A stretch of 64,000 nucleotides of DNA from positions 256,001 through 320,000 of the forward strand of contig CAVSGI010000014.1 of the NCBI GenBank assembly GCA_963727445.1, read 5' to 3'. This stretch comes from an uncultured delta proteobacterium (GTDB lineage: Bacteria > Myxococcota_A > Polyangia > Polyangiales > B10-G4). A model generated the notes under the pieces. That model was not told the origin of the DNA, did not search any database, and saw only the letters and a list, made by a program, of their open reading frames with translations. A program made the position numbers and the translations under genes. Shown piece after piece: positions 23,601-53,962 of this stretch; the stretch's first letter is position 1, and every line of letters begins with the position of its first letter.

Positions 23601-23836
23601 GCCTGGGCGACTGGACCCACGGCTCCGGCCCGGTGTTCCGCATGGTCGTCGCGCTCGGCCCCGATGGTGTGCGCGGTCAGACGATCATCCCCGGTGGCCA
23701 GAGCGGCATGCCCGCGAGCCCCCACTTCGACGACCAGGTCAAGCTCTGGCTCGCCAACGAGACCGACCCCATGCGCTACCTCCCCGACGAGGTCGTCGCC
23801 GGCGCCGTCGGCCTCGAGCGCTTCGCACCCGAGTAA
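20647..23836 (+). CDS. Penicillin acylase / peptidase S45 (Ntn-hydrolase) lipoprotein, multiply frameshifted
   Basis: Lipobox GSGC; IPHVYA...GFVMAQDRFFQMD; beta-subunit start GSNCWA near 21640; C-terminal PGGQSG...HFDDQ. Pieces lie in different frames. Confidence 0.82.
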
Positions 23837-33088: not shown

Positions 33089-36000
33089 CGCTCACCTCCG
33101 AGTCCCAGGGTTCGCGGCGCGAGGATGCTCACCCCGGCCGGCCGATCCTCGACCCAGCCGGCGACCCCGAGGCCGCGCAGCTGGCCTTCGACGCTCCAGC
33201 GGACGGGCAGTGGGATCCGAAGCTCTCGACCCGGCGGCATCGGAGCGAGGCGCAGGGTGAGCACCCCTTCGGAGACCTCGGTGCGTCGCACGCCCGCGCG
33301 CATTCGCTGGCGCGCCTGGGCGGTGAGCTCGGCGCCGGTGGGCAGCTCGAGCTCCACCACCGGACGCGGCAGGGTGCGCGGTGAGCGGTTGCGGATCACG
33401 AGCTCGAGCTCGGCGACCTGGTCGACTGCGCCCGCCTCTCCTTCGATCGCGAGAGAAAAGGGACCGCGCTCGCTCGGCGCGCGACGCCATCCGATCCCGT
33501 AGCGCGCCGAGGTCGAGACCTGGACCAGCGCGCCCGGCACGGTGCGCGCGACCACGTGATGAGCGCCGGGCCGCGCGAGCTCCGGCGCGTCGACCGTCGC
33601 CGACCCCGCTGCGAGGTCCACCACCTGCCGCGCGCCGTCGATGGTCACCTCCACCGTGGCCGGCGTCTCCCCGTCGAGGAGGCGGGACATCACGACCGCG
33701 GCAATCCCTCGCTCGTCTGCGGCGAGCGTGTTGCCGAGCGTGACCCAGCGACCGACCGTCGACAAGAGCGAGAGCGCCGTCTCTCGGCGACCGAGGGAGA
33801 GCTCCGCGAGGGCCCACAGCAGCGTGCTCCGCACCGACCGTCGATCGGTGGCGAGCCAGCGATCCTCGCCGACCAACACCGCGTGCCGGCGCGCGCGGCG
33901 CAGGAGCTCGGCGACGGAGGTGCGCCCACCTTCGCTCGCGCCGAAGCCGAGGGCGGCCGCGGCGAGCACCCACCCCTCGGGGTCGTCCGCTGCGCCCATC
34001 GCCTGCGCGGCGACCTCGGTTCGGAGCCGCTCGACGAGCTCGACCGGATCGGCGACGCCCCGCGCGTCCGGGCGGTCGGCGATGGGGGCGAGGCCCAGGA
34101 GCGTCCACGCGAGGGCGTGAAGGCGACGCCGCTGCCCGTCTTCCATGTCCGAAAGACGCGAGTCGACACGATCGATCTGTTCGCTGAGCTCGAGCGTCAC
34201 CTCGCTGATCTCCCCGTCACCGCTGGCGCCGTCCGCCCACAGGCTGCCCAGGGAAAACGCGCGATGCACAGGCGCGTAGCCGGTGTGGAGCTCGCGCAGC
34301 GAGGCTTCCGGCCCGGCGACGGGCGGCGACCACTGCGCAAAGGGCGCGTCGGGATCCGAGACGCCGAAGACCGTGGGGCCGGCGGCGACGAAGAGGCTCG
34401 CGCCACGCGCGTCGGCGCCCGCCGGGACGTCGAAAGACACGCTCGCCTCGGTGTCCCCCACCGCCTCCTCGGCGACGGTCACCCGCCGGGAAAGCGCGAT
34501 CACCTCGATGGGCCGGCGCACCGCGTCCACCGCCTCGCCATCGGGGGTGGTGGCGACCACCGTCAGGTGCCCCTCACCGACCCGTTCGAGCGTCACGTCC
34601 ACCGGCACCACCTGGGCATCGCCCGGAGCGAGGGTGAGACGATGCGGTGCGGAGTCGGGCACGCCGAGCCCTTCGTCCCCCAGCAGACGAAGGACGAGCT
34701 CGCGCGACTCCTCGCCGCGATTCGAGATGCGGAGCGGAAGGCGCACCACGTCACCGCGGTGGGCCGTGGTGGGAATCGGTGCGTCGACGACGATGTCGCG
34801 GTCGACCTCGATGCGCGTGTCGGCGGACCAGATCCAACCGTCGTCCCGCCACACGATCGCCTCGACGATGTAGGTGGTGACGGTGTCCGCGAGGGGAATC
34901 GAGATCTCGGTCGTCCCCGAGTCGTCGAGGGCGAGGTCCGGCACGAAGAGCAGGGTCGGCGGGAAGCGCTCGCGCACGATCCCCGCGAGGTTGGACACAC
35001 GCGCCTCGCCCATGCGCAGCCGGGGGACTCGGGTGTTGCGACCGCCCATGCGACCGGAACCACTTCCATAGCCCGAGCCCCCGCCACCCCCACCGGTGCC
35101 GATCATGCCGAGACCACCGAGGCCGTAGTTGTCCTCGCTCACCTCCGCACTCACCGCGTCGCCAATCTCCTCTTCGCGCGCCTCCGCGTTCACGCGCCGG
35201 TACGCCTCGCGGATGAGCGCGAGGGTGGCGCTCAGCGGCGAGATCACCGCGAGTGCGCGCATGAGCGTGTCCTCGCCGCACGCGAGGGCGTAGGGCGTCG
35301 CCGCCGGGACCGCCCGTGCGAAGGGATCGCGGACGTCATCGCGCGTGCCCGGTCGCCCGTCGGGCCCGGGCGAGACCAGCTCGAGATGGGTCGCGCGCGC
35401 GGAGAGCACGACGGTCGGCGCGTTGGTACGGCGGAGCTGATAGTGCCCTCCCCACGGATCGTCCAGCTCCTCGGCCGAGAGAAGCCCGCGCTCCACCATG
35501 CGCGGGAGCCAGCGCTCCGGCGGCTCTCGCGACGCCATCTGTGCCGCGGGCGACGCCTCGTCTCCAGGATCGAGGTACGCGGCGAGGGCGACCATGATGC
35601 GAACCAGGCGGGCGCGCGCGACGCGCCGCGCGATGTTGTCGTAGGTGAAGGCGGGGTCGGCGGCGCTCAGGATGGCGGGGGTGATCTCGGCTCCCCGAGG
35701 GTCTCGTAGCCCTGGCCGGCAATCAGGTCGTCCTCGAAACGGCGGCGTCCGCCGCTCAGCTGCGTCACGTCGTCGAGAGCGCCCGACGCGAGGGCCTCGG
35801 TGAGGCGCGCCTCAATCTGCCGCATCGCCTCGCCGACGCCCCGCCGCGCGAGCTCACGCGAGAGCGGGAAGGGATCGCGGAGGGGACCGGTGGCGTTGGT
35901 GTGCTCGGGTTGGGCGGCGAGGCCGAGGGCGTCGGTGAGCGGCGCGGCGCGGGGCGGCTCCGGGTCGGCGCCGCTGTGCGCGGCGAGCGCGCTCCTGAGG

Positions 36001-37859
36001 AGCCGGTCGGCGGCGGGCGTCGAGGGATCGAGGATGGCCCGAATCGAACTGACCCTCGAGATAGGAGCGGCGAAACGGCTCCTCGCCGCCATGAGCGCTC
36101 AGGTCGCGCACCAGCACCGCGCCATAGCTCTGGCCGCTCCCCGGCGCCGTGTCGAGTCGGACCCGCGCGGTCTCGCCCACGACCCAGCGCTGCCGTTCGG
36201 GCGTCAGCGACACGAAGTCCGGATTGGCGGGTCGTACAATCAACCCCGCGTGGCTCTCCGGGCCTTCGAAGCTCTCGTCCTCGCGCAGGGTGCGCGCGAC
36301 CACCGAGAAGAGGCCGAGCCGATCGGGCGGCAGATCGATGCGCACGCTGTCGCGGCCAGGAGCGAGGCGCGTCACGAAGAGGGGCTGGCCAATCGGATGC
36401 GATCAGCTCCACGGTCACCTGTGCGCCGGGCAGCCCGCGGGCGGCGAAGAACGCGCACCGTCACCGGCGAGCCGGGCTCGGCGACGACTCGGTCGAGCAC
36501 CAGGCCGAGCTCCGCGTCTCGGAACACGGGGAGCGTCACCGGCGCGACTCGCTCGTGCGGGCCGAGGATGCGCACCAGGATCGGCGTCTCTGGCGTCCCC
36601 GACGCGGCGGACGCTGCACCGAGGGGAACGCGCAGGGGGATCTCGGCGAAGCCGTGCGCGTCGGTGGTGAAGGTGCGCGAGCCCACACGCACCGCCGGGC
36701 CCTCGATGGTCAGCTCGGTTCCTGCGGCGGGAGGCTCGCCCGCGCCGTCCTTCAGCCGAACGTAGAGGACGTCGTCGATTTCCGGGATGAGCCCGCCGTT
36801 GCGTGCATAGGCCTCGATTGACAGGGTCCGGGGGACCGCGAGGGTCATGGTGTCCGAGATGACGATCGAGCCGTGGGCCGGATGCGTCACGTCGGCGCTC
36901 AGGGAGACCACTGCGCTGTCGGCCGTGTAGTAAGCGGGCGCCACCACTTGCACCCGCGCGTTCCCCTCCGCGTCCGACTCCCCCGCGAACTCCGCCTCGC
37001 CGATGTGCACCGTCACCTGGGCGCCCGATACCGGGGAGCCGCTCGGCGTGGTCACGTGAACCACCGCGGTGGTCGTGGCCCCCGGGGCCACCTGATTGTC
37101 GGTGACCTCGAGGGTCGCCAGCAGCCGCTCCCAGGTGCGCGTACCCACCTCGAAAGAGACCTGCTGCGAGAGCTGACCTTCGATCTCGGCGATGACGGTC
37201 GCGTAGCCATGAGGTGCGCTCTCGTCGATGGCCATCTCGAGGTGCACGACGCCGCTCGCTGCCGTCGCTAGCCTTTGCACACTCCGCGGCAGGGGCCCGC
37301 CTTCGACGGTGAGCTTCACGTTCTGCCCCACGACCGGCCGTCCCGTGGCGTCATCGGTCAGGAGCAGCCAGACGTGGGCGGGCTCACCCGGCTCGTAGAG
37401 GCGCCGGTCACTGCGCAGCATCATCGAGAGCGCCGGGACGGGGTTCACCGGGATCTCGAAGGTGCGCGCGTCGTCGTCGGGACCGATGCGCACCTCTATG
37501 TGCGGGGGCCCGAGCCCCGGCGTGTGGTCGATGGGTGGGATTGGCACCTGGACCTCGAAGCGCCCATCGGCGGCCGAGGCCGTCGCCACCCACGGCGTCC
37601 GAACGTCGCCCTCCCCCCGCGTGAAGCGCGCGCGCACCTGCCCTTCGAACGGGACGAGCTCGGCCAGGCCACGCACCCGATAGGCCACCCCGAAGAAGCG
37701 GGCAGGCCGCTCGGCACGCACCGAGGTCCCGCCGCTGAAGGCCATCTCGTAGCCGGTGAAGGGCACCCGCTCCTGCGCAGCGGCAGCACTGACGAGCGAC
37801 GACAGCCAGAGCGCCGAAGAAAGAGCGAGCAGCCAACGCCGCAAAGAGCCTCCCAACAT
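33085..37859 (-). CDS. Giant secreted alpha-2-macroglobulin-like protein A (MG2, A2M domain, GspG-like motif), several frameshifts at 35690-36450
   Basis: Signal peptide from ATG 37859; LRSDRRLYEPGE (MG2); VRERFPPTLLF...LADTVTTY (A2M domain); RPVVELELPTGA C-terminal domain. Confidence 0.75.
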
Positions 37860-37898: not shown

Positions 37899-37996
37899 CG
37901 CCACCACGGGACTCGTGGATTTTCGGCGGCGGCTCTGGCCCCCTTTGGGTTGGGGGGCCAGAGGGTGGCTGGACGTACTCGCCGCGTGAAATGGCG
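37899..37996 (-). repeat. 96-nt pfa-locus element, copy 1 (non-coding, in the leader of the macroglobulin-like gene)
   Basis: The minus strand reads tcacgcggcgagtacgtccag-N21-caaagggggccagagccg-N25-gtggcg, matching the copies in pfa2/pfa3. Confidence 0.8.
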
Positions 37997-38193
37997 TGAG
38001 GGGGCTCTCGTGTACGAAGGGTGCACAAAAGCGCCGAATCTGCGCCCTCACCCGTGGATTTTCGAGGTCTCGGGAGCGCTCCGACGCAGGGCGTCAAAGC
38101 GGCGCGATTCCGGGGGCTTGCCACCGTGGTGAAACGATGACAGGGGGAGGCCCCGTCACCCGCTAAGAAGGGTGATTCACGCGAGCAAGGGGA

Positions 38194-39810
38194 ATGCTTC
38201 CGAGCGTCGGCATGTGGACAGCGGGCGAGACGCCGCCCGCATTCGAGCAACGCGCCTTGTTGTCGGCGATCGCCGACTTCCGGGCGCCGCTGCACGTCCT
38301 ACGTGAGTCCGCCGAAGGGCGCGTCGGCGTGGGACGCGAAGGCGACGTGATCCCGAAGCGTTATCTGAACGGTCACGCCGCTTATCCGCTCCTCGCGACG
38401 CTCCCCGCGCTGTATCCGGAGTGGCTCGGCGATCGGAGCTTCCTCGAGACCCACGGCGTGCGTTTCCCTTACGTGACCGGCGCCATGGCCAACGGCATCG
38501 CGACCACCGACCTGGTGATCGCGATGGCGCGGGCGCAGATGCTCGGCTTCTTCGGTGCCGCCGGCCTCGCCTATCCCCTGGTCGAAGCAGCGGTGGGCCG
38601 CCTCGAAGCGGCCCTCGGCGGAACCGAGCTCGCCTGGGGGATGAACCTGATCCATTCGCCGAACGAGCCCGCCCTCGAAGACGCGGTGGCGGACCTCTAC
38701 ATCCGCCGCGGCGTGCGGCGCGTGTCGGCCGCCGCCTTCCTCGCCCTCACGCCGGCCATCGTCCGCTACGCCTGCGCCGGGCTGTCGCGCGCGCCCTCCG
38801 GCGAGATCCTCCGGCGCAACCACGTCTTCGCGAAGATCTCCCGCCCCGAGACCGCGCGCCACTTCATGAGCCCGGCGCCTCAGCCTATCCTCGACGCGCT
38901 GGTCGCTGCCGGAAAGCTCACCGCGGACGAAGCCGCGCTCGCCCGCCACGTGCCGCTCGCCGAAGACATCACTGTCGAGGCCGACTCCGGCGGTCACACC
39001 GACAATCAGGCCCTCACCGCCATCTTCCCGGTCATCGCCGAGCTTCGCGACACTCTCGCGGCCGAGCACGGCTTCACGCGGCCGATCCGCGTGGGCGCCG
39101 CCGGCGGCCTCGGCACCCCCCGCTCCGTCGCCGCCGCTTTCGCCCTCGGCGCGAGCTACGTCCTGACCGGCTCGGTCAACCAGAGCAGCCTCGAGTCCGG
39201 CCTCTCGGTCGAAGGCAAGCGCATGCTCGCCCAGGCGAGCACCGGCGACGTGGTGATGGCGCCCGCCGCCGACATGTTCGAGCAGGGCGTCCTGGTGCAG
39301 GTGCTCAAGCGCGGGACGATGTTCGGCGCGCGCGCCCACAAGCTCTTCGTCGCCTACGAGAGCTACCCGAGCCTCGACGCCATCCCCGCGGCGGAGCGGG
39401 CGCGCCTCGAGAAGCAGGCCCTCGGCGCCACCTTCGACGAGGTCCGCGCCGCGACCCGCGCCTTCTGGGCCGACCGCGACCCCTCGGAGAACGACAAGTC
39501 GGCGCGCGATCCCAAGCACGAGATGGCGCTCTGCTTCCGCTGGTACCTGGGGCTGTCGAGCCGCTGGGCCATCACCGGCGAGGCCAGCCGCAAGCTCGAC
39601 TATCAAATCTGGTGCGGTCCCGCGATGGGCGCGTTCAACGAGTGGGTGAAGGGTTCGTTCCTGGCGCCCCCGGACAACCGCTCCGTCGTACAGATCGCGC
39701 TCAACCTGCTCGAGGGGGCCGCGACGGTCACCCGAGCCCATCAGCTTCGCAGTTACGGCGCGCCGATCCCGGCCGCCGCTTATCGGTATGAGCCCCGTTT
39801 GCTCGCGTAG
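38194..39810 (+). CDS. pfaD: PUFA synthase enoyl reductase PfaD (myxobacterial Pfa1)
   Basis: GAMANGIA, FGAAGL, NLIHSP, EADSGGHTD, GAAGGLGTP, APAADMFEQG, DYQIWCGPAMGAFN. Confidence 0.95.
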   Translation: MLPSVGMWTAGETPPAFEQRALLSAIADFRAPLHVLRESAEGRVGVGREGDVIPKRYLNGHAAYPLLATLPALYPEWLGDRSFLETHGVRFPYVTGAMANGIATTDLVIAMARAQMLGFFGAAGLAYPLVEAAVGRLEAALGGTELAWGMNLIHSPNEPALEDAVADLYIRRGVRRVSAAAFLALTPAIVRYACAGLSRAPSGEILRRNHVFAKISRPETARHFMSPAPQPILDALVAAGKLTADEAALARHVPLAEDITVEADSGGHTDNQALTAIFPVIAELRDTLAAEHGFTRPIRVGAAGGLGTPRSVAAAFALGASYVLTGSVNQSSLESGLSVEGKRMLAQASTGDVVMAPAADMFEQGVLVQVLKRGTMFGARAHKLFVAYESYPSLDAIPAAERARLEKQALGATFDEVRAATRAFWADRDPSENDKSARDPKHEMALCFRWYLGLSSRWAITGEASRKLDYQIWCGPAMGAFNEWVKGSFLAPPDNRSVVQIALNLLEGAATVTRAHQLRSYGAPIPAAAYRYEPRLLA

Positions 39811-39816
39811 GACGTC

Positions 39817-42800
39817 ATGAACGAGAGCCAAAAGAAAATCGCGGTCGTAGGTGTCAGCACTCTCTTCCCCGGCTCGGTCGATTCGACCGGCTTCTGGAAG
39901 GACATCCTGTCGGGAACCGACCTCATCACCGACGTGCCTCCCTCGCACTGGTTGATCGAGGACTACTATGATCCCGACCCCTCCGCGCCCGACAAGACCT
40001 ACGCCAAGCGCGGCGCGTTCGTCCCGAAGGTCGACTTCGATCCGATGGCCTGGGGCGTGCCGCCTTCCACCATCCCCGCCACCGACACCTGCCAGCTGCT
40101 GTCGCTGATCGTGGCGCAGCGCGTCCTCGAGGACGCGGCGCGGGGCCAGTTCGACTACGCCGACCGCGACCGCATGAGCGTGATCCTCGGCGTGACCAGC
40201 GCCCAGGAGCTCCTCGGCGCGATGGTGAGCCGCCTTCAGCGCCCGGTGTGGACCAAGGCGCTGCGCGAGATGGGCCTTCCCGAGAGCGAGGTATCCGAGG
40301 CCTGCGAGCGCATCGAAGCGCACTACACGCCCTGGCAGGAGGCGACCTTCCCGGGCGTCCTCGGCAACGTGGTCGCGGGGCGCATCGCCAACCGCCTGAA
40401 CCTCGGCGGCACCAACTGCGTCACCGACGCGGCCTGCGCCAGCACCTTCAGCGCGCTGTCGATGGCGGTGAACGAGCTCGAGGTCGGTCAGTCCGACGTC
40501 GTGATCTGCGGCGGCGCGGACACGATGAACGACATCTTCATGTACCTCTGCTTCAGCAAGACGCCGGCGCTGAGCAAGTCGGGCGACTGCCGCCCCTTCA
40601 GCGACCAGGCCGACGGCACGATGCTGGGCGAGGGCTTCGGCATGGTGGCGCTCAAGCGTCTCGAGCAGGCCGAGGCGGACGGCGACCGCATCTACGCCGT
40701 GATCCGTGGCGTCGGCTCGAGCAGCGACGGGCGCGGCACCGAGCGTCTACGCGCCCGTTCCGAGCGGCCAGGCGAAGGCGATCCGCCGCGCCTACGACAA
40801 GGCCGGCTACGGGCCGGAGACGGTCGAGCTGATCGAGGCGCACGGCACCGGCACCATCGCGGGCGACGCGGCGGAGTTCGAGGGGCTGCGCCAGGTCTTC
40901 GACGAGTCGGGTCGTGCGGACCGGCAGTGGTGCGCCCTCGGCTCGGTGAAGTCGCAGATCGGCCACACCAAGGCCGCAGCGGGCGCCGCCGGGCTGGTGA
41001 AGGGCGTCTTCGCGCTCCATCACAGGCGTGCTTCCGCCGACGATCAAGGTGGACGCGCCGAACCCGAAGCTCTCGCTAGCGGAGAGCCCCTTCTACCTGA
41101 ACACGCGGGCGCGCCCATGGATCCGCGACGACGCGCATCCGCGCCGCGCGAGCGTCAGCTCCTTCGGCTTCGGCGGCTCGAACTTCCACATCGCCCTCGA
41201 GGAGTATGCAGGGCGACTCGCACGCCTATCTTCGGCGCGCGACCGAGAGCGAGCTCTTCGTGGTGACGGGCGACACGCCCGAAGCCGTCGCGAAGCGAAG
41301 CGCGCGAGCTGAGCGCCGCGCTCGGCGCCTCGGACGATGCCCTCGGGCTCTTCCGCTACCTCGCGCGCGCCACGCAGGAGGCGTACGACGCGGGACAGCC
41401 GTGCCGCCTCGCGGTGGTGGCGACCGACGCCGTGGACCTCGCCGCCAAGCTCGACAAGGCCGCCGTGATGGCGGCGAAGGGCGACGAGCTTCGCGACACC
41501 GAACGGCATCGTCTTCGGTCGCGGCGCGGCCGAGGGCGACGTCGCCTTCGTCTTCCCGGGCCAGGGCAGCCAGTACATCGACATGGGCGCGGTCGGTCGC
41601 CATGACCTTCCCCGAGGCGCGCGCGCCCTGGGATCGGGCGGCGAGCTCCGAGACGTTCGACGAGCCCCTGCACGACGTGGTCTTCCCGCGGCCGGTCTTC
41701 GACGACGAGGTCCGCGCCGCGCAGGAGAAGAAGCTCACGGCGACCGAGTGGGCCCAGCCCGCGATCGGCGTGACGAGCCTGTCGCACCTGGCGCTCCTCG
41801 ATCGTCTGGGCCTGTCGCCAAAGGCCGTGACCGGTCACAGCTTCGGCGAGGTGATCGCCCTTCACGCCGCCGGGCGTGCTGAGCTTCGAAGACGCGATCC
41901 GCATCGCGCGCCGTCGCGGTGAGCTGATGGCAGAAGCCGCGAAGACGCCCGGCGCCATGACCGCGGTTTCGGCGTCGGCCGACGTCCTCCGCGAAAAGCT
42001 CGCGGGATGGGACACCGACGTGGTCATCGCCAACGAGAACAGCCCGCAGCAGACGGTGCTCAGCGGCCCGACGGCCTCCATCGACGCCATCGAAGCAAAG
42101 CTGAAGGCGGACAAGCTGCGCTTCCGCCGCCTGCCGGTGGCGACCGCCTTCCACTCGAAGGTCGTCAGTGACTCCACCGTCCCCTTCGCCGAGCACCTGT
42201 CGAAGGTCGAGATGAACGCGCCGCGCCTGCCGGTCTACGGCAACACCGAGGCGGCGCCCTACCCCGCCGACGCCGACGCGGCGCGCCGTCTCCTCGCGAA
42301 CCAGCTCGCCGCCCCGGTGCGCTTCGCGCCTTCGATCGAAGCCATGTACGAGGCGGGTGCGCGCACCTTCATCGAGGTCGGCCCGGGCTCGGTCCTCACC
42401 GGCCTCGTCGGCCGCATCCTCGACGGCCGCCCCCATCGCGCCATCGCCCTCGACAAGAAGGGCAAGGACGGCGTCACCAGCCTGAACAACGCCCTCGCCC
42501 AGATGGTCGCGACCGGCCTCCCCCTGAACCTCGCCGCCCTCTGGGAGCGCTTCGAGCCCGTCGAGGATCCGCGCACCGCCAAGAAGCCGAAGCTCACCAT
42601 CTCCATCGGCGGCGCCAACTACGGCAAGCCCTACCCGCCCGAAGAGGGCGCGAGCGCGCTTCCCAAGCCCAACCCCGAACGACCGAAGCAGGCAGCGATC
42701 GTCATGACGAAGCCAGACACCCCGACGACTCCCGCAGCACGCAGTGAGTACGTTCAGCCGCCCTCCGTCCCCCAGAGGCCGATGGGGCCTGAGCCGCAAC

Positions 42801-45800
42801 CGAACGCCCTCGCGCCAGACGTGGCGGCGTACTACGCCGTGCAGTCGAAGGCGATCGAAGCCCACACCGCCTTCACCCAGGCCATGGCCCAGAGCCACAC
42901 CGCCTTCCTCGCCGCCCAGCAGCAGGCGATGCAAGCGATGGCCCAGATGCAGAGCGGCCACGTCCCGACGTTCACGCCGCAGATTGCGCCCACTCCGGTC
43001 GCACTCCCCGCATCGGTTCCCCCCCAGCAGTTGGCCCCCCAACATCCTGTGTCACCCAGCGCGTACGTTCAGTCGCCCTCGGCTCCCCAAACGCAAAGGG
43101 GGCCTGAGCCGCGCGCCAACACCGAGACCTCCCTGGTGGCGTCAGCCACCACACAGCAAAGCACTGTTCAGGAACAGATCGCGACCCCCGCGTCTCCGTC
43201 CGTGCCCGCGTCCGACGCCCCGTCGTCCGTCGATCTCCAACAGATCATGCTCGAGATCGTCGCCGACAAGACCGGCTACCCGCTCGAGATGCTCGACCTC
43301 TCGATGGACCTCGCCGGTGACCTCGGCGTGGACTCCATCAAGCGCGTCGAGATCCTCGCCTCCATGAAGGAGCGCGCCGAGGGTCTGCCCGAGGTCGATC
43401 CCGCCGAGCTCGGCAAGCTCCGCACCCTGCAGGAGATCGTCGACCGCATGCAGGCCGAATCACCCGGCGGGAACGTTCAGGGGCCCTCCGGCCACGGCCC
43501 ACAAAGGGGGCCTGAGCCGGAGCCCAACGCCGTCGGGCCGGACGTGGCGGCCGCGGCCCCTGCCGCCTCGGCGTCGGGACCCAGCCACTCCGCCGCCGAC
43601 CTCCAGGCGCTCATGCTCGAGATCGTCGCCGAAAAGACCGGCTACCCGCATCGAGATGCTCGACCTCTCCATGGACCTCGCCGGCGACCTCGGCGTCGAC
43701 TCCATCAAGCGCGTCGAGATCCTCGCCGCCATGAAGGAGCGCGCCGAGGGTCTGCCCGAGGTCGACCCCGCCGAGCTCGGCAAGCTTCGCACGCTTCAGG
43801 AGATCGTCGACCGCATGCAGGCCGAATCACCCGGCGGGAACGTTCAGGGGCCCTCCGGCCACGGCCCACAAAGGGGGCCTGAGCCGGAGCCCAACGCCGT
43901 CGGGCCGGACGTGGCGGCCGCGGCGCCTGCCGCCTCGGCGTCGGGGCCCAGCCACTCCGCGGCCGACCTCCAGGCGCTCATGCTCGAGATCGTCGCCGAA
44001 AAGACCGGCTACCCCACCGAGATGCTCGACCTCTCCATGGACCTCGACGGCGACCTCGGCGTCGACTCCATCAAGCGCGTCGAGATCCTCGCCGCCATGA
44101 AGGAGCGCGCCGAGGGCCTGCCCGAGGTCGACCCCGCCGAGCTCGGAAAGCTTCGCACGCTGCAGGAGATCGTCGACCGCATGCAGCAGGCCGAATCACT
44201 CGGTGGGAACGTTCCGGGGTCCTCCGGCCACGGCCCACAAAGGGGGCCTGAGCCGCAACCCAACTCCCAAGGGCCGGACGTGGCGCCCACCCGCTGGGCC
44301 CTGCGCCTCGCGCCCACGCCCGCGCCGGGCTTCACCCTTGCGCACCTCTTCGATGCGAAGTCGATCGCCGTCGTCGACGGCGGCTCCGGCCTCGCGCAAC
44401 GCGTCGCCGCTGCCCTCGTCTCGCGCGGGGTGGCTGCGAAGGCGGGAGCGCCCGACGCGCAGAGCGACGGCGTCGTCTTCCTCGGCGGGCTCGCCAAGCC
44501 AGGCACCATCGATGACGCGATCCGCATTCAGCGCGAAGCCTTCGAAGCCGCGAAGGCCGTCGCACCGAAGCTCGCGGACGGGGCCCCGGGCATCTTCGTG
44601 ACCGTGCAGGACACGGGCGCCGACTTCGGGCTCTCGGGCGCCAAAGACCTGCGCGCGTGGGTCGGCGGTCTGCCCGGCCTCACCAAGACCGCCGCGCAGG
44701 AGTGGCCGTCCGTCGGCTGCCGTGCCGTCGACATCGACCGGCACGAGCGCGGCGACGGCGCCGTGGCCGACGCCCTCGTCCGTGAGCTCATCCGCGGCGG
44801 CGACGCCCTCGAGGTCGCGCTGGACGCCGATGGCAAGCGCCACACCCTCGAGAGCTACGCCGCCGAGGCGACCGGCGCAGACGCCGCGCGTCACCAAGGA
44901 CTCCGTGATCGTCGCCTCGGGCGGCGCGCGCGGCGTCACCGCCGAGACGATCATCGCCCTCGCCAGGGAGACCGCCGCGAGCTTCGTGCTCCTCGGCCGC
45001 ACCGCCCTCGAAGACGAGCCGGCCGCGTGCCACAGCGCCGCGGACGACGCCGCCATCAAGAAGGCGCTCCTCGACGACGCCAAGGCCCGCGGCGAGAAGA
45101 TCAGCCCAGCGGATCTCGGCGCGCGCGCGAAGCGCATCCTCGCCGCCCGCGAGGTGCGCGCGACGCTCTCGGCCATCGAGGCCGCGGGAGGCCGGGCTCG
45201 TTACGTCGCCGCGAGCGTCACCGACGCCAGCGCCCTGGGCGCCGCCCTCGACGCGGTGCGCACCGAGTGGGGCCCCGATCACCGGCATCATCCATGGCGC
45301 CGGTCTCATCGCCGACCGCTTCATCGCGGACAAGAGCGTGGAGGACTTCACGCGCGTCTTCGACACCAAGGTACGAGGCCTGTCGGCGCTCCTCGACGCG
45401 ACGGCGAACGATCCCCTCTCGGTGCTCGTCGCCTTCTCGTCGGTCGCGGGTCGCTGCGGCAACCGCGGCCAGTGCGACTACGCGATGGCGAACGAGACCC
45501 TGAACAAGGTTCTCGACGCCGAGCAGGCTTCGCGCGGCACTTCCTTTTTCGCGCGGAGCCTCGGCTGGGGCCCGTGGGAAGGCGGCATGGTCACGCCCGC
45601 CCTCAAGCAGCACTTCCAGAGCCTCGGCGTGCCGCTGATCTCCCTCGAAGCCGGCGCGAAGATGCTGGTGGACGAGCTGATGGACGAGAGCGACTCGGTC
45701 GAGCTCGTGCTCGGCGGCGAGCCGCGGGCCGAGGCGCTGTCGGCGAACGCCGGTGGACATCGGGACTCGGCGAGCTTCGACGTGCTCATCGACCAGCGCA

Positions 45801-46580
45801 CCTTCCCCGCCATCGATCATCACCGGGTCAAGGGTCAGCCCGTGCTGCCGGTCGCCCTGGTGATCGAGCTCTTCGGCCGCGCCATCGAAGCGACCCGCCC
45901 GGACCTGGTCTTCACCGCGATCGAGGACCTCAAGGTCCTGCGCGGCGTGCCCCTCGAACACTACGAGGACGGCGGCGAGCTCCTCGGCATTCGGCTGACC
46001 CAGCTCTCCAACGGTGACGGAGTCGTCTTCCGCCTCGAGCTCGTCGACCGCAGCGGCCACCCCCGCTATACGGCGAGGGGCCTGGCCGAGCACCACGCGC
46101 CTCAGCGCAGCTCGCTTCCGGCCCCGGGCCGAAGGGCTCGCGCGCTTCGAAGGTACCGTCTACGACGGCGTCGCGCTCTTCCACGGAGACGCCTTCCAGG
46201 TGATCACCGACGCGCCCGAGGTCGGCGAGGCCGGTCTCGAAGCGATCCTCGAGGGCGGCGAGTCGCGCGGCTGGACGGGCGATGCATGGGTGACCGACCC
46301 GGCGCTCGTCGACGGCGGCCTGCAGCTCGCGCTCCTGTGGACCTGCCACGAGCTCGGGGGCGCCGCGCTGCCCACCTCCTTCGGCGCTTCCGCCGCTTCT
46401 CGCGCGGGCTCGCGCGGCGGCGAGGTGAAGGCCATCCTCACCGGCAGCGAGCGTCACGAGAGCCGCGGCGTCTCCGACGTCGTGCTCATCGACGCCAAGG
46501 GCAAGCCGGTCGCCGAGATCCTCGGCGTCGAGATGCACGTCCTGCCCGGCTCGCGCGCGGGCACCTCGGTGCGCGTCTGA
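39817..46580 (+). CDS. pfaA: PUFA synthase PfaA-like subunit (Pfa2): KS-MAT-3xACP-KR-PKS DH; many frameshifts
   Basis: KS: DAACAS, EAHGTGT, GHTKAAAG. MAT: FPGQGSQY, GHSFGE, AFHS. Three DLGVDSIKRVEIL ACPs. KR: SGGARGVT, GNRGQCDYAMAN. DH: HRVKGQPVLP and DGGLQ. Confidence 0.9.
42738..44285 (+). repeat. 96-nt element copies 2-6 in pfa2 linkers (42738-42826, 43052-43141, 43454-43549, 43821-43916, 44190-44285)
   Basis: Shared boxes CAC-N9-ACGTTC(A/C)G-N21-CAAAGGGGGCCTGAGCCG-N24-GTGGCG (copy 2 has CCGATGGGG in place of CAAAGGGGG). Confidence 0.85.
43247..44285 (+). repeat. Tandem ACP+linker repeats, period 366 nt
   Basis: atgctcgagatcgtcgcc recurs at 43247, 43613 and 43980; the units are near-identical at DNA level. 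Confidence 0.9.
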
Positions 46581-46593
46581 ACGTCTGTCCCAC

Positions 46594-49500
46594 ATGCGCT
46601 TCGCACCCATCGCCATCGTCGGCCGGGCGTGCCTCCTGCCCGGCGCCCACTCGCCCGAGGCGCTCTTCGCCCTGGCGCGGGAGGGCCGCGACGTGCTCTC
46701 GGATGCGCCCGCGGGGCGGTGGCGCGTGCCGGACGCGGACGTGCTCGCCGTCAGCGGACGACGCCGCGGACCGGACGTGGACGCGGCGCGGCGGCTACGT
46801 CGACGGCTTCACCTTCGACCCGTCGGGTCTGAAGCTCCCAGCCGAGGTCCTGAACGCGGTCGATCCCCTCACCCAGTGGGTGCTCGACACCGGGCGCCGC
46901 GCCCTCGCCGATGCCCGCGCTGGGCGACGACCCGACGCGCACCGGCGCGGTCCTCGGCAACCTCTCGCTCCCCTCCTCGGGTGCGGCGCGCTACGCCGAG
47001 ATGATCTGGCTGGGCGAGCTCGCCGCGAAGGTGGGCATCGGCGCGCATCCCTTCGACCGCTTCAACTCCGGACTGCCTGCCCACACCCTCGCGCAGGCGC
47101 TCGGTCTCGGCCTCGGCGGCTACGCGCTCGATGCGGCCTGCGCCTCGTCGCTCTACGCGATCGAGCTCGCCTGTCGCGCGCTGTCCACGGGCCGCGCTGA
47201 CCGCATGCTCGCCGGCGCCGTCAACCGCGCCGACGACCTCTTCCTCCACATCGGCTTCTGCGCCCTCGGCGCCATGAGCAAGACGGGGCAGAGCCGCCCC
47301 TTCCACGCGCGACGCCGACGGGCTCGTCCCCGGCGAAGGCGCGGGCTTCGTGGTGCTCGAGCGCCTCGACGACGCGCTCCGAAACGGACGCACCATCCAC
47401 GGCGTCATCCGCGGCGTCGGCCTGGCGAACGACGGCCGCGGCAAGGGCCTGCTCGCGCCGAGCGCCGCCGGACAGGAACGCTCCATGCGGCTCGCCCTCG
47501 AGATGGCGGGTCTCGTCGCCCGCCGACGTCCCCTACATCGAGTGCCACGCGACCGGGCACCCCGGTCGGCGACGCGACGGAGATCGCGTCCATGCGCGCG
47601 GTCTACGGCGAGAGCGACAAGCGCATCGGCTCCCTCAAGGGCAACGTCGGGCATCTGATCACAGCCGCGGGCGTCGCCGGGTTGATCAAGGTGATGGAGG
47701 CGCTGCGCGAGGGCGTGACGTCCCGCCGACCCCGCATCAGGACGCGCGTCTCGACGCGCTCACCGCGTCCCCCTTCGAGACGCTCGGACCGCGCCGAGCC
47801 GTGGCGCGGCCCACGCCGCGCGGGCCTGAGCGCCTTCGGCTTCGGCGGGAACGACGCCCATCTGATCGTCGAGGCCTTCGAGCCCGAGCGCGCCTTCGCA
47901 CCGGTACAGGCCGCTCTGTCGCGAGACCCCATCGTCGCAGTGGGGATCGGCGCCCGCGTCGGCGACGGCCAGTCCGCGGCGGACTTCGAGCGCTCGCTCG
48001 GCGGACGCGGCCGCGCACGCGCCGCAGACCGTGCGCTTCCCGATGAAGGAGCTCCGCTTTCCGCCCGATGATCTCAAGAAGGCGAGCGCCCAGCAGACGA
48101 TGCTCCTCGCCGCCGCGCTCGAAGCGACCCGAGGGCCTGACGCTGCCGCGCGAGACCACCGGCGTCTTCGTCGGCTACCAGTGCGACCCGGAGATCGCGC
48201 GCTGGGGCGCGCGGTGGCGCGCAGGGACGCTGGGCCGAGGCGCTCGGCGCGGGCGAGGATTGGACGCGCGCGGCGAAGGACGCCTTCGTTCCGCCCCTCG
48301 AAGCGCAGCACGTCCTCGGCACGCTCCCGAACATCCCCGCCAACCGCATCAGCTCCCAGCTCGATCTCGATGGGCCCGAGCTTCACCACGAGCGCCGAAG
48401 AGCAGAGCGGCCTTCGTGCCCTCGGCCTCGCCATCGAGGCGCTCGAGCGCGGCGACCTCGACGCCGCCCTCGTCGGCGCCGTCGACCTCTCCACCGAGCC
48501 CGTCCACGACGCGGCCCTCTGCGCCATGGGCCAGACCCCCGCGCACGGCGACGCCGCGGTGATGCTCGTGCTCGAGCGCCGCAGTGACGCCGAGCGCGAG
48601 GGCCTGCCGATCCTCGGCGAGCTCCGCCTCGGCGAGAGCGACGCCCCCGCGCTTCACCTCCGCCCTCCCCCGCGCCCACGCCGCCGCCGGCCTCGTCGAC
48701 ACCGCGGCCGCCCTGTTGCGCGCCGCCCGCGGCCAGCGGCGCCGACGGCACCCCCTGGACCGATGACGAGCGCCGCCTCGCCCTCGACGTCGACGCCCTC
48801 GGCGCCGCGCCCATGACCGTCGAAGTCCGCGCGACCGGCCCGGCGCTCCCCCCCCTGTCCGAAGCGACGAACGACGAGACCCTCGACATGCCCGCACACC
48901 TGCCCCCCGTCGCCCTCCCGCCGCTCCGAGCCGCACAGGATCAGCCGATGCAGAAGATGGCGCCCGCCCCCACCTTGCCGCCCACCACCTACGACGGCCC
49001 TGCGGCACCCCCTGAGCCGCACCCGAAGGCCGAGACCTCACTGGTGGCGCCGCCACCACACGGCTGAACGCCGTTCCGCAGTATCTCGCGACCCCACAAC
49101 CCTCCGGCCCACTCGCTCAGTTCGCCCACCACCAGGCCCAGGTCGCCGAAGCCCACACCGCCTTCATCCAGCAGCAGACGGCCCTCCACCGACAGTTCCT
49201 GGCGACGATCTTCGGCACCCCCGCGCCCACTCCCGCGCGCGTCCACACGCCCGATCCCGTTCGCATTCCCGTTCCCGTCTCCCGAGCCCGCTCGCGCTCC
49301 CGTTCACATTCCCGAGCCCGCTCGCGTTCGCGGTCCTATTCACGCTCCCGAGCCCGTTCACGAGCAGGCCGCTCCGACACGCAAGCTGAAGGCCGAATCA
49401 CCCAGTGGGATCGTTCAGTCACCCTCGGGCGAGCCATCTCAAAGGGGGCCTGAACCGCCTCCGAAGGCCGAGACGTCGGTGGTGGCGCCCCTCGCCTTCC

Positions 49501-52500
49501 GCCCCACCGGCCCCTCCTTCGATCGCGCCGCGCTCGAAATCCACGCCTCCGGCCGCATCTCCGAGATCTTCGGCACCGACTTCGAAAAGCAGGACGGCTT
49601 CGCCGTCCAGGTGCGCATGCCCGAGCCGCCGCTGCTCCTCGCCGACCGCGTGCACCGGCATCGACGCCGAGCCCGGCTCGATGAAGAAGGGCACGTGCTG
49701 GACCGAGACCGACGTGCGCGAGGACTCCTGGTACCTGCACGACGGGCACATGCCCGCCGGGATCATGGTCGAGTCCGGACAGGCCGACCTCTTCCTGATC
49801 AGCTATCTCGGCGCCGACTTCTTGAACCGCGGCGAGCGCGCCTACCGCCTGCTCGGCTGCGAGATGACATGCCACGGCGACCTGCCGAAGATCGGCGAGA
49901 CCCTCGCCTACGACATCCACGTCGACGGCCACGCCGCCCAGGGCGACGTCCGCCTCTTCTTCTTCCACTACGACTGCCACGTCCGCCGCGACGACGGCAC
50001 CACCCGCCCGGCGCTCAGCGTGCGCGGCGGCCAGGCCGGCTTCTTCACCGAGGGCGAGCTCGCCGAGTCCGACGGGATTCTGTGGAAGCCCGAGGGCCAG
50101 GAGATCGTCCAGGACGCGCGCGTCGACGCGCCCGCGGTCGCCTCTCGAAGCGCCGGCGCTTCTACGCGCGAAGCAGGTCGAGGCGTTCGCCGACGGCCGC
50201 CCCTGGGACTGCTTCGGCCAGGGCTATCTCCGCACCAAGACGCATACCCGCACGCCGCGCATCCAAGACGGACGCATGCTCTTCCTCGACACCGTCGAGC
50301 TCGATCCGAAGGGCGGGCCCTGGGGCCGCGGCTATCTCAAGCGCGGTCACCCCCATCTCCCCCGACGACTGGTACTTCGACGGCCACTTCAAGAACGACC
50401 CCTGCATGCCCGGCACGCTGATGTTCGAAGGGCTGCGTGCAGGCGATGGCCTTCTACCTGTCGGCGCTGGGCTACACCATCGACCGCGACGGCTGGCGCT
50501 TCCAGCCCATCGCCGAAACGAAGTTCGACCTTCGCTGCCGCGGCCAGGTGATCCCCGCCTCGAAGGAGCTCACCTACGAGGTCTTCGTCGAGGAGGTCCA
50601 CGACGGCCCGGTGCCCAAGCTCTACGCCGACCTGCTCTGCACCGTCGACGGCCTCGGCGCCTTCCACGCGCGCCGCTTCGGCCTCGAGCTCACGCCGAGC
50701 TGGCCGCTGACCGACCGGCCGGAGCTCATGCGCGAAGGCAAGGACGACCCGCGCGCCGCCGTCGCGTCGATCAGGACAGCGCGCCCTTCCGCTTCGACTA
50801 GCCCTCGCTCCTCGCCTGCGCCTGGGGCCAGCCCTCGACCGCCTTCGGCCCGATGTACGAGCGCTTCGACGGTCACCGCCGCACGCCGCGCCTGCCCGGC
50901 CCGCCCTACCACTTCCTGACCCGCGTCACGAAGGTCGACGGAGCGATGGGCGGCCTCGAGAGCGACAAGACCCTCGAGTTCGAGTACGACATCCCCGAGG
51001 ACGCCTGGTACTTCGAAGAGAACGGCGCGCGGGTGATGCCCTTCGCCGTGCTGCTCGAAGCCGCGCTGCAGCCCTGCGGCTGGATGGCGAGCTACGTCGG
51101 GTGCGACTCTCACGAGCGAGAACGACTTACTCTTCCGCAACCTCGACGGCAAGGGAACGATCCTCGCCGAGGTCTTCCCCGACAGCGGCACGCTGCACAC
51201 GACGGTGAAGATCAAGAACATCTCGCGCTCGAGCGGAATGATCATCGTCTCCTTCGACGTGCGCTGCCGCTTCGGCGACACCGACGTCTACCATCTCGAC
51301 ACGGTCTTCGGCTTCTTCCCCCCGGAGGCCTTCGAGGACCAGGCCGGTCTACCCACCGACGATGCCCAGCGCGCGACCTTCGACGCCGAAGGCAACGTCT
51401 CCATCGATCTCACCGCGCGCCCGCCGCGCTTCTGCGAAGGCTCGGCTCCGCCTCGCCGAGCCGATGCTCCTGATGCTCGACCGCATCACCCGCCTCGACA
51501 AGACGGGCGGCGCCGAGGGCCTCGGCGCTGCTCCGCGCCGAAAAGGACGTCGACCCGGCGAGTGGTTCTTCAAGGCGCACTTCTTCCAGGACCCGGTGCA
51601 GCCCGGCTCGCTCGGCATCGAGGCGATGCTCCAGGTGCTTCAGGCGTTCATGATCGACGCCGACATGGGTGAAGGCATCGCCCACCCGCGCTTCGAGGCC
51701 ATCGCCACCGACCTGCCCCACGTCTGGAAGTACCGCGGCCAGGTCGTGCCCGAGGCGAAGACGGTCACCACCACGCTCGAGATCGTCGAGACCGGCGCCG
51801 ATGATCGCGGGGCCTACGCCCTCGCCGACGCGTCGCTCTGGGTCGACGGGAAGCGGATCTACGAAGCTCACCGCCTCGGCATGCGCATCGTCGCTGGCGA
51901 GCCCGCGCCCGCAGAGGACGAAGAGATCCTCGATCCCGAAGAGGACACCTGGCTCGGCGATCACCGCCCGACGCACACCGCCCCCGCGCTGCCCATGATG
52001 AGCATCGTCGACCGGATGATGGCGGCGGCGCGTCGTGCGCGCCCCGACCTCGACGGCCTTCACGATCTCGAGGTCGAGCGCTGGGTCGTGGTGAACGGCC
52101 CCACGCGAACCCGCACCGTGCTGGACGGCGACGAGGTGCGCTTCGAGGTGTGGCGCGACGCGAACGATCCGCGCCTCTCCCGCTTCGAGGTCGCCGCGCG
52201 CGCCAAGCTCGGCGCGCCGACGTCGCTCGAGGAGATCGCGCCCCTCGGCAAGACGAAGCGGATCGATCCCTATGGGGGCGACCGCCTCTTTCACGGCCCC
52301 GCCTTCCACTACGTGCGCGAGCTCGAGATGGGCGAGCGCGGCGCCCGGGCAATGCTCGACGTGGACGCTGGGACGGTCCCCGCCGGCGCCATGCACCAGG
52401 GTCTCCTCGACGCGATCACTCACCTCATCCCACACGACGACCTCGCGTCCTGGTCGCCCCGCGTCGGCAAGGACGTCGTCGGCTACCCGCGCCGCCTCGA

Positions 52501-53962
52501 CATCCGCTTCTCGGGCGAGGCGCCCGCGAGCGGCGTCGCGCGCGCCGAGGCGCGCTTCGTCGGCTTCGACCAGGACGACGCGCGTTTCCCCGTCTTCCGC
52601 GCCCAGCTCCTCGCCGGCGACCGCGTCTACGCGGACCTCCGCCTCGTCGAGATCCTCATGCCCAAAGGGCCCATCGGCGCGGCCGAGCCCACCGCGCGCC
52701 ACCGCTTCCTGACCGGCGAGCCCGCCCCCGGCGTCGGCCTGTCGCGGCGACAGGGCGAGGTCACCCGCCTCGATCCGAACGACGTCGCCCTGAGCGACTG
52801 GTTCCCAGGTACCGTCGAAGCGCTCTACGGCACCCGCGCCCCCCGCGACATCGCCATCGCCGACCACCTCGCCCGCGCGCTCGACGTCCACCCGCGCCAC
52901 ATCCGCGTGGAAGGCGATCACGGCGTCGACAGCCACCGGCCGCTCACCGCGCACCCGGTGACGGTGAGCGAAAGCGGCGAGATCGAAGTTCGGAGCGCTG
53001 GCGCGCCTTTCCTCGACATCACCCCCGTCTCCCGCTTCTGGCGCGACTACTTCGCGATCGGGAGCTGGCCCGTGGAAGAGCTCTACTACGCCCTCGTCGA
53101 GCGCTTCGTCGGCGCCTTCGTCGTCGAAGATCCCGACGCCCTCGGCGCGCTCCACGGCCGAAGCGTCCTCTACCTCGGCAACCACCAGACGGGCATCGAG
53201 TCGCTCATCTTCTCGATCGTCGCCTCGGCGCTCCAGGGCGTGCCCACCCTGACCCTCGCCAAGACCGAGCACATGACGAGCTGGCTCGGGCGGCTCATCC
53301 AGCACTGCTTCACCTGGCCCGGCGCGAAGGATCCGGGCGTCATCGCCTACTTCGACCGCAGCGATCCTCAGTCGCTGGTGCGCATCGCCTCTCAGCTCGC
53401 GGACACTGCCTCAGCGAAGAGCCTGATGGTGCACGTCGAGGGCACGCGCGCGCACTCCGCACGCCACCGTGTCGAGACGATGAGCGGCATCTTCTGCGAC
53501 CTCGCCATCAATGCCGGCGTCCCCATCGTGCCGGTCCGCTTCGCGGGCGGCCTCCCAGTCGCGCCGGCCAGCGAAAAGCTCGAGTATCCCGTCGGCATGG
53601 GCCGGCAGGACTATCACCTCGGCGCCCCCATCCTCCCGCAGGAGCTCGCCGAGCTTCCGCTCAAGCCGCGCATCGCGCGCGTGGTCGACGCGATCAACGC
53701 ACTCGGTCCGGACGCGTCCACCGAGACGCCGCTGGCGGGCGATCCGGAGCTGGCCCAGGCCGCTCTGAGCCGCGTCTCGCGCACTGGCCTCGGCCTGGGT
53801 CTCGCGACGATCGTGGAGCTCCTCAATTCGCGCAACTACCTCGGCCCGCACCTCACGCGCTTCCTCAACGCCGTCGACGGCGAGCGCCGCGCGACCTCCG
53901 GCTCCTCCCCGGAGGACCGCTGGGTCGACGGCCTTCTCGCGCTCTTCCGGCCCGAAAGCTGA
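46594..53962 (+). CDS. pfaC: PUFA synthase PfaBC/PfaC-like subunit (Pfa3): KS-short CLF-linker-FabA-type DH/pseudo-DH x4-PKS DH-PlsC-like acyltransferase; many frameshifts
   Basis: KS: DAACASS, ECHATG, GHLITAAG. CLF: SAEEQSG (no Cys). DH: FDGHFKNDPCMPG and FKAHFFQDPVQPG. PKS DH: DHRPTHTAPALP. Acyltransferase: NHQTGIE and HVEGTR. Confidence 0.85.
49011..49487 (+). repeat. 96-nt element copies 7 (3' half, 49011-49049) and 8 (49392-49487) in the pfa3 linker
   Basis: Copy 7: cctgagccg-N24-gtggcg. Copy 8: gccgaatcacccagtgggatcgttcag-N21-caaagggggcctgaaccg-N24-gtggcg. Confidence 0.85.

Follow-up and report, generated by a model that had tools for sequence, protein, structure and literature searches.

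A short DNA repeat of fixed internal geometry, probably mobile, in the polyunsaturated fatty acid synthase genes of an uncultured myxobacterium

Why do several linkers of a polyunsaturated fatty acid (PUFA) synthase and the non-coding leader of a divergent operon carry the same short DNA sequence? The question is raised by a 64,000-nt stretch of contig CAVSGI010000014.1 (assembly GCA_963727445.1, positions 256,001 to 320,000), here called the window, from the 9.47-Mb genome of an uncultured member of the Polyangiales (G000). An initial annotation, made from the sequence alone, had described eight copies of an element with fixed spacing and proposed a cis-acting RNA hairpin serving very long operons; the last role on its list was an in-frame mobile repeat like the Rickettsia palindromic elements (RPE). 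This last candidate fits best. The element, about 94 nt long, is probably a non-autonomous mobile DNA repeat that is specific to one lineage and inserts in frame as RPE do; we infer that an enzyme acting in trans moves it.

All eight copies are real and lie where the initial annotation had placed them (Table 1), with 18-mer matches, a repeat finder and a profile search in agreement. The 18-mer core matches the window seven times against 0.08 expected from shuffles, and the repeat finder aligned six plus-strand copies (five full ones plus 42737) in one ungapped 90-nt register and joined the half copy at 49011 to a 41-nt family. As had been claimed, the profile search found no further copies within the window. 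The element runs from a 5' end near CG-NN-TSAC to a 3' end at GTGGCG; the leader copy, on the minus strand, ends at 37899, 39 nt from the macroglobulin-like ATG. Short-read contigs from unrelated runs span two copies without gaps (X1, 43696-44066, covering the copy at 43821; X2, 42650-42900, covering that at 42738), so the element is real.

The six full coding copies share one reading frame and encode a common VQ..P..GPEP..VA-like peptide, as had been observed. The codons singled out earlier as atypical are indeed rare within their own amino acids (GTT 3.9%, CAA 8.4%, AGG 4.1%, CCT 6.1%, TCA 2.7%), but one in-frame linker without the element is equally atypical, with a codon adaptation index of 0.51 against 0.38-0.53 for the element copies. 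That conservation acts on nucleotides rather than on the peptide is upheld by the non-coding position of most copies and by the homologues: the encoded peptide occurs in 0 of 120 Pfa2 homologues, whose acyl carrier protein (ACP) linkers are ordinary Ala/Pro-rich stretches. Comparison of the linkers was confined to proteins, since G001, a genome of the same genus, lacks a clear pfa2 orthologue and a further scan confirmed that related pfa2 loci are missing.

Outside the window the element is dispersed through the genome. An iterated profile built from six window copies gave 31 matches at E<=1e-3, seven of them inside the window, while the best match in the reversed genome reached E=2.7. A sequence-only model was then trained on 27 copies, six from the window and 21 from outside; its alignment omits the identical twin at 43821, the half copy, other array units, a microsatellite-expanded copy and partial copies. 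At the same cut-off this model found 37 matches at about 27 loci (seven in the window, five in one tandem array and 25 elsewhere). The copies are mostly intergenic and often abut a stop codon, and their neighbours have no common function, ranging over ribosomal proteins, prfA, tRNA-Met, kinases, TPR proteins and transporters (92 neighbouring segments scanned). They are mildly clustered, with eight neighbour pairs closer than 50 kb against 3.7 expected (p=0.02). Contigs C10 (1.58 Mb) and C8 (0.61 Mb) hold none, against 4.8 and 1.9 expected, and the test of distribution by contig is not significant (p=0.13).

Copies occur in both orientations. Across 30 loci (29 plus the leader copy, two below the E cut-off), classified from approximate codon-based gene calls, 11 contexts are divergent, four convergent, eight co-oriented sense and seven co-oriented antisense, and the downstream gene lies in the sense direction at 19. 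Replication strand, assigned from a weak GC skew, shows no bias (11 leading, nine lagging, 10 unclear). The earlier statement that all copies face transcription holds for the eight in the window but not for two in-gene copies elsewhere, which lie antisense and in frame, one within a dihydrolipoamide acyltransferase (E2) linker and one in the acidic tail of a membrane protein. Flexible linkers thus tolerate the element in frame on either strand. Nine E2 homologues, three of them 78-80% identical, fail to align with the peptide encoded by the E2 copy. The initial annotation had set genome-wide occurrence in random orientation against its own RNA model, and with 37 matches and eight sense versus seven antisense copies this is what we observe.

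The copies are conserved in a strikingly uneven manner. Between copies the blocks are 73% identical and the spacers 40-42%, yet the spacer lengths N9, N21 and N24 are kept, as first described, with 25 instead of 24 in the non-coding leader copy and in no other copy of the window. The core measures 90 nt in 13 of the 27 aligned copies and 88-91 nt in 23. Conservation of at least 90% is reached in 23 of 90 columns and of at most 45% in 15, compared with maxima of 7-13 and 1-5 in simulations of neutral decay from a single master (200 runs at each of three rates). This unevenness is inflated by discovery with a profile, which preferentially recovers copies whose blocks are intact. Single bases are fixed even within the 24-nt spacer, where C was counted in 12 of 12 and 11 of 12 copies from outside the window. 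Something reads particular bases set at fixed distances. Dispersed copies are at best 77% identical to one another and form a star tree. Some are rearranged, with two duplications of the 3' half and two internal deletions that retain both ends. The main exception to fixed spacing is the microsatellite-expanded copy (L036:1937-2061; G000 C9:719136), in which a five-fold hexamer repeat enlarges the first spacer. The tandem array (L031:1772-2146; G000 C9:551271-551645) lies between divergent genes and consists of about 4.7 head-to-tail units of 77 nt; the units join where the two ends of the element share a short microhomology. Another copy starts a few bases from the 3' end of tRNA-Met(CAT) (L032:2000-2169); a tRNA was present at one of 14 loci scanned.

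To determine how widely the element occurs, we searched related genomes, in samples of relatives, order and phylum that overlap. BLAST matched no element in 40 relatives, and the 27-copy model none in 60, including G001 (86% complete), where the best match had E=0.01. Among 150 genomes of the order, 12 gave weak single matches (E 7e-4 to 1e-2), which we treated as chance because none of the four inspected contained all blocks; 150 genomes of the phylum gave none. Plasmid and phage collections held no match to the element. The exact degenerate pattern was absent from GTDB and viral contigs, and 14 GTDB matches to the 18-mer showed no element beyond the 18-mer itself. Two metagenome contigs did match the pattern, both with full copies (E 6e-16 and 4e-15). 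Within the collections searched, the element is restricted to one lineage.

These two contigs show that the element is polymorphic at orthologous sites. The first, L106, is 98% identical to G000 contig C25; at the 3' end of trpS it has 97 nt including an element copy that overlaps the stop codon, where G000 has 25 nt, and homology returns at the element's 3' end. Twelve mismatches are packed into 75 nt on the 5' side only, which blurs the left end and leaves room for arrival of this allele by recombination. The second, L105, is 83% identical to G000 and carries a copy after dctP where G000 has none. A direct repeat beside this copy was not counted as evidence, since it is part of a different tandem repeat family. 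The same contig carries two further intergenic repeat families (L105:1597-1722 and 1865-2012), each with about 30 matches in G000, often as tandem units of 120-225 bp; G000 is rich in tandem intergenic repeat arrays.

Within the pfa genes, much of the repetition can be traced to local copying. Three copies ride a repeat of about 366 bp containing an ACP, and those at 43454 and 43821 are identical members of this tandem and not independent. The half copy at 49011 and its downstream flank are 77% identical over 86 nt to the copy at 43052 and its flank, and by this resemblance the half copy appears to have been copied from pfa2. The copy at 49392 looks composite, agreeing with the ACP copies at 20 of 24 positions of its 5' part and with the half copy at 19 of 24 positions of its 3' spacer. 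In addition, the EAHxAF linker segment, a docking segment, is 96% identical (24 of 25 nt) between pfa2 and pfa3 (window:42856-42880 and 49147-49171), a sign of recent conversion between the two genes. ACP duplication and copying between pfa2 and pfa3 reduce the eight copies to about three or four entries. Even so, this is a strong local excess over one locus per roughly 350 kb, and one that a mobile repeat leaves unexplained.

Table 1. Element copies and surrounding genes, in window positions
Feature	Position	Strand	Remark
Repeat copy, intergenic, divergent leader	37899..37993	-	3' end 39 nt before ATG at 37859 (macroglobulin-like gene)
Repeat copy, in frame, Pfa2 AT-to-ACP linker, before EAHxAF segment	42733..42826	+	spanned by short-read contig
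Repeat copy, in frame, Pfa2 linker before ACP1	43048..43141	+	likely donor of half copy 49011
Repeat copy after ACP1	43456..43549	+	part of ~366-bp tandem ACP unit
Repeat copy after ACP2	43823..43916	+	identical to 43456 copy (ACP unit duplication); spanned by short-read contig
Repeat copy after ACP3	44192..44285	+	nearly the entire ACP-to-KR linker; multi-copy ACP region stops at its last base
3' half copy, Pfa3 linker	49011..49049	+	77% identical to 43103-43188, including downstream flank to 49095
Full copy, Pfa3 linker	49394..49487	+	mosaic
pfa1 (PfaD-family enoyl reductase)	38194..39810	+	TIGR02814 over cut-off
pfa2 (KS-AT-3xACP-KR-DH)	39817..46580, end approximate	+	frameshift-broken in assembly
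pfa3 (two KS-type pieces, FabA-type DH, acyltransferase)	46594..53962, start approximate	+	frameshift-broken
First alpha-2-macroglobulin-like gene, divergent operon	33085..37859, 3' end approximate	-	MG2, MG4 and A2M domains; frame-broken

The host operon is a PUFA synthase of the myxobacterial type, with a PfaD-family pfa1, a PfaA-like pfa2 with three ACPs and a pfa3 ending in an acyltransferase; this matches the architecture described in PMC6731297. In the assembly, pfa2 and pfa3 are interrupted by many 1-nt frameshifts. An additional base near 43650 is missing from the short-read contigs of runs X2 and X4, and the frame break there is probably an assembly error. RtcB (window:14943-16098) and a gene of the penicillin-amidase family (20674-23824) are frameshift-split like pfa2 and pfa3, again probably through assembly errors. 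The operon on the opposite strand (window:26301-37859) begins with two large alpha-2-macroglobulin-like genes, in which Ig-like domains are present; after these come uncharacterised genes and one for a zincin-like protein.

If the element is a mobile repeat, it would have entered the pfa operon a few times, with about two to three entries into linkers and one into the leader, and would have spread locally as ACP units were duplicated in tandem and as ectopic conversion took place between the pfa2 and pfa3 linkers. Mobile DNA would in this way supply or replace entire linkers of a megasynthase and be carried along by ACP duplication, a route for the evolution of module number. The conserved blocks and fixed spacer lengths of the element would then represent the recognition geometry of the mobilising enzyme. 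Our guess for this enzyme is a single-strand HUH transposase, a possible candidate that is nevertheless more apt to prove wrong than right. Such a transposase, of the Y1 or the IS91-like Y2 type, would cut at the 3' end without duplicating the target and could take 5'-flanking DNA along in a circle. The absence of a target duplication, what appears to be one sharp end, the strand-specific weak stems, the tandem arrays and one locus resembling circle integration fit the HUH chemistry described for IS91, ISCR1 and TnpA-REP (PMC13181058, PMC7707992, PMC8266576). Flanking duplication above control level is absent in 26 of 27 copies, although older short duplications could have decayed. At the remaining locus (G000 C20:466578), the copy is bracketed by identical 59-bp direct repeats, each corresponding to a kinase gene's 3' end. 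The second repeat continues into an alternative gene end that overlaps the stop codon of a convergent gene, and for that reason marks the original gene end; from the same locus it is also clear that the terminal CG is part of the element. Such an arrangement is what one would expect if a circle carrying captured flanking DNA had integrated, a route put forward for ISCR1 (PMC7707992).

The genome encodes a limited set of enzymes that could act on the element: four Y1 genes, seven IS91-like, eight IS110 and 12 integrase matches and one retron-type reverse transcriptase, with no match to TnpB. One Y1 gene, RAYT-like (C9:168544-169248), lies between its own 155-bp inverted repeats (83% identical, the sole such pair in the genome) at L055:1636-3262 (G000 C9:168146-169761) and is also flanked by hexamer-repeat tracts. 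Its 83%-identical paralogue (C10:985537) lacks these features, and both proteins fall below the NCBIfam RAYT cut-off. Two more Y1 genes, at L061 and L062 (G000 C9:567190 and C10:487668), are flanked by short inverted repeats ending in GTCCCC, which at L061 are reiterated several times on both sides. A 13-mer at the 3' end of one element copy is shared with the L061 repeats; it occurs 22 times genome-wide, mostly elsewhere, and was not used. A 2.46-kb element that encodes an IS91-like Y2 transposase together with a tyrosine recombinase is present twice, nested among IS110 copies (G000 C11:7653-10114 and C22:7497-9959). The retron-type reverse transcriptase (L098:1045-2322, G000 C1) has the retron St85 family as its best NCBIfam match, below cut-off, with a SWIM-like-looking gene on one side and an opposite-strand gene on the other.

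Several observations weigh against a mobile repeat. No mobilising enzyme could be linked to the element: 16 loci with Y1, IS110, IS91-like, retron and integrase genes gave no match beyond chance (best E=0.026 in 54 kb), and we found no autonomous partner and no clearly constant target. A degenerate copy does overlap, on one side only, the stop codon of the RAYT-like gene, one of the four Y1 genes. We rejected this link, as the paralogue has no copy and 0 of 76 homologous loci carry the element; nor is such an overlap distinctive, given the similar position of the trpS copy. The absence of replication-strand bias speaks against the pathway of IS608, which has a lagging-strand bias (PMC5027513). 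The 59-bp flanking repeat is a single case, and transfer of the half copy ran past the 3' end of the element. At three sites (E2, trpS and the final ACP linker) the element substitutes for sequence instead of being added to it, which blurs the left ends. Near-identical dispersed copies are lacking, so that no recent burst is seen. The L106 copy shares no more than 77% identity with any of the aligned copies of G000, and its divergence means that this polymorphism may reflect an insertion of older date that ordinary recombination has carried along. The near-random spacers of fixed length are likewise left unexplained.

Among other explanations, we consider it unlikely that the element is a host DNA site, for protein binding or site-specific recombination, kept by selection at each locus, with the blocks as contacts, the spacers as helical geometry and the inverted repeat as a dimer site. 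Such a site would account for conservation whose unevenness far exceeds that produced by neutral decay of a single master, for the fixed bases in the 24-nt spacer, for conserved positions that are symmetric about the inverted repeat without covarying, and for the mild clustering and the empty 1.58-Mb contig. Yet selection on mobilisable masters yields the same unevenness, which discovery bias further inflates, and the contig test gives no support. Absence from G001 and the other relatives searched, presence and absence at orthologous sites and the unrelated neighbours speak against a host site. Less probable again is a retroposed origin from retron multicopy single-stranded DNA (msDNA), which Lampson and Rice (cited in PMC6868368) reportedly proposed in 1997 for repeats of the myxobacterium Nannocystis exedens. 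Beyond this precedent, the genome has a retron-type reverse transcriptase, and the combination of sharp 3' and ragged 5' ends fits reverse transcription; on the other hand, msDNA is a long stable hairpin, unlike the element, which has no similarity to the resident retron locus, the only one compared. A conserved linker peptide or an assembly artefact could be suspected from the single frame of the six full pfa copies and from the error-rich assembly. This explanation is already refuted, as most copies are non-coding or antisense, the homologues lack the peptide, and the element is present in independent short-read and metagenome contigs.

The RNA element first proposed, acting from the sense strand in antitermination, mRNA stability or ribosome pausing in long operons, is in our assessment quite improbable, though a shade above a retron origin. 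It finds some backing in the uniform sense orientation within the window and the 19 of 30 loci with a sense downstream gene, and in the many copies abutting stop codons, a position at which repeats can be recruited to control mRNA (PMC2229807). The initial annotation's nine pairs are formed in 83% of cells, a better fit than slid registers give, but as many as 333 of 500 shuffles do equally well. The GUUCAG/CUGAGC plus CCC/GGG hairpin shows no covariation, 408 of 500 shuffles score as high, and its A-U pair is broken in 13 of 27 copies. Mutual information likewise revealed no covariation, and RNAalifold returned three pairs only and no consensus fold. Taken singly, copies show no folding advantage over shuffles (mean z -0.58 for RNA and -0.50 for DNA; three of 27 below -2). 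An exhaustive helix scan (80%) did recover three stems, one of 5 bp near the 3' end and two of 4 bp, G-U-dependent and on the forward strand only, all in near-invariant columns. No consensus stem exceeds 5 bp, and terminal complementarity is imperfect, at most 4-6 bp. Rfam holds no match to the element (window at gathering threshold; 15 loci at E<=5). Possible resemblances to group II intron domain V, an HDV-like ribozyme, attC, ops, a sigma-54 box, a diversity-generating retroelement and a nanopore adapter were weighed by eye against the column-by-column conservation and set aside. Antisense copies inside two genes, the lack of orientation bias in co-oriented contexts, the absence of the element from other myxobacterial pfa genes and a leader in which no terminator- or sigma-70-like site was found all argue against an RNA function. 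The hairpin tied to long operons is thus not supported, and no new RNA regulator of such operons is revealed.

A more far-reaching version of the mobile repeat is conceivable, though we rate it as unlikely as a host DNA site. The element may serve as substrate for a system of single-strand recombination, so far unrecognised, that reads the fixed geometry instead of a hairpin or terminal repeats; it may circularise at the 3' end with captured upstream DNA, and may have been co-opted in the PUFA synthase as a recombination handle, with one copy per ACP unit and docking linker. It would then drive changes in ACP copy number and exchange of linkers between Pfa2 and Pfa3, tuning PUFA output; PUFA productivity rises with ACP number (PMC5067506).

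We found no description of the element in the literature searched, mainly open-access main texts. It resembles RPE and the Yersinia element YPAL but is filed under neither the MITEs (miniature transposable elements with inverted repeats) nor the REP sequences. With MITEs and RPE it shares a length below 200 bp, a non-coding nature, multiple copies, lineage restriction, in-frame insertions (pfa2, pfa3, E2 and the membrane protein) and empty and filled sites; terminal inverted repeats closing a stable stem-loop and target site duplications are absent. Of the features of structured cis-regulatory RNAs, it shows neither covarying pairs nor sense orientation beside functionally related genes nor an Rfam match. 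REP and BIME sequences with TnpA-REP (RAYT) are, like the element, dispersed and near stop codons, with tetranucleotide-preceded imperfect palindromes and tandem arrays, and RAYT-like genes are present in the genome. REP sequences differ in being 20-50 nt long, mostly GTAG-preceded, usually arranged as inverted doublets and flanking their transposase gene (PMC8266576), whereas the element has 94 nt, is not arranged in inverted doublets and adjoins only one of the four Y1 genes, on a single side. Its weak imperfect stem is preceded by GTAC (in a 17-nt block, with a variable T), and its size, its tetranucleotide and the lack of repeats flanking a RAYT gene set it apart from REPtrons.

IS200/IS605, IS91/ISCR and their derivatives share with the element the lack of target duplication, a strand-specific subterminal palindrome and apparently one sharp end (PMC5027513, PMC13181058, PMC7707992). 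Possible capture of flanking DNA, which would recall IS91/ISCR, is suggested by the 59-bp-repeat locus and by one one-sided divergent tract, with the half copy as a counter-case. The element differs from both groups by having no autonomous partner with matching ends, no lagging-strand bias and no clearly constant target tetranucleotide; on its 5' side TSAC occurs in 10 and SAC in 16 of 27 copies, and this motif may lie inside the element. Caulobacter CIR are similar in size (about 110 bp), in their GC-rich host, intergenic location and conserved internal motif, and in that their mobility is unknown; they differ by two long stem-loops, stops in all frames, a strictly non-intragenic location and conservation across genera (PMC2229807). 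YPAL/RU-2 comes closer, being not AT-rich and without TA termini, with an internal inverted repeat, an open frame fused to genes, and empty and filled sites between close relatives (PMC2229807). It is distinguished by its 168 bp and its target duplications of 3-26 bp, against none in 26 of 27 copies and one 59-bp repeat here. RPE are likewise about 100 nt, lineage-specific and dispersed, intergenic or in frame in unrelated housekeeping proteins, and moved by an unknown enzyme (PMC2229807, PMC10969869). They differ in forming long stem-loops with 12-bp terminal inverted repeats, while the element lacks a stable consensus fold, is GC-rich, has near-random spacers of fixed length and is concentrated in a single megasynthase. 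Reviews treat the way in which RPE-like repeats move, and their entry into genes in frame, as an open question (PMC2229807, PMC10969869). The present family adds a GC-rich, free-living example with an empty and filled pair, a fresh 59-bp flanking repeat and few candidate enzymes in one genome, which together make the mechanism testable.

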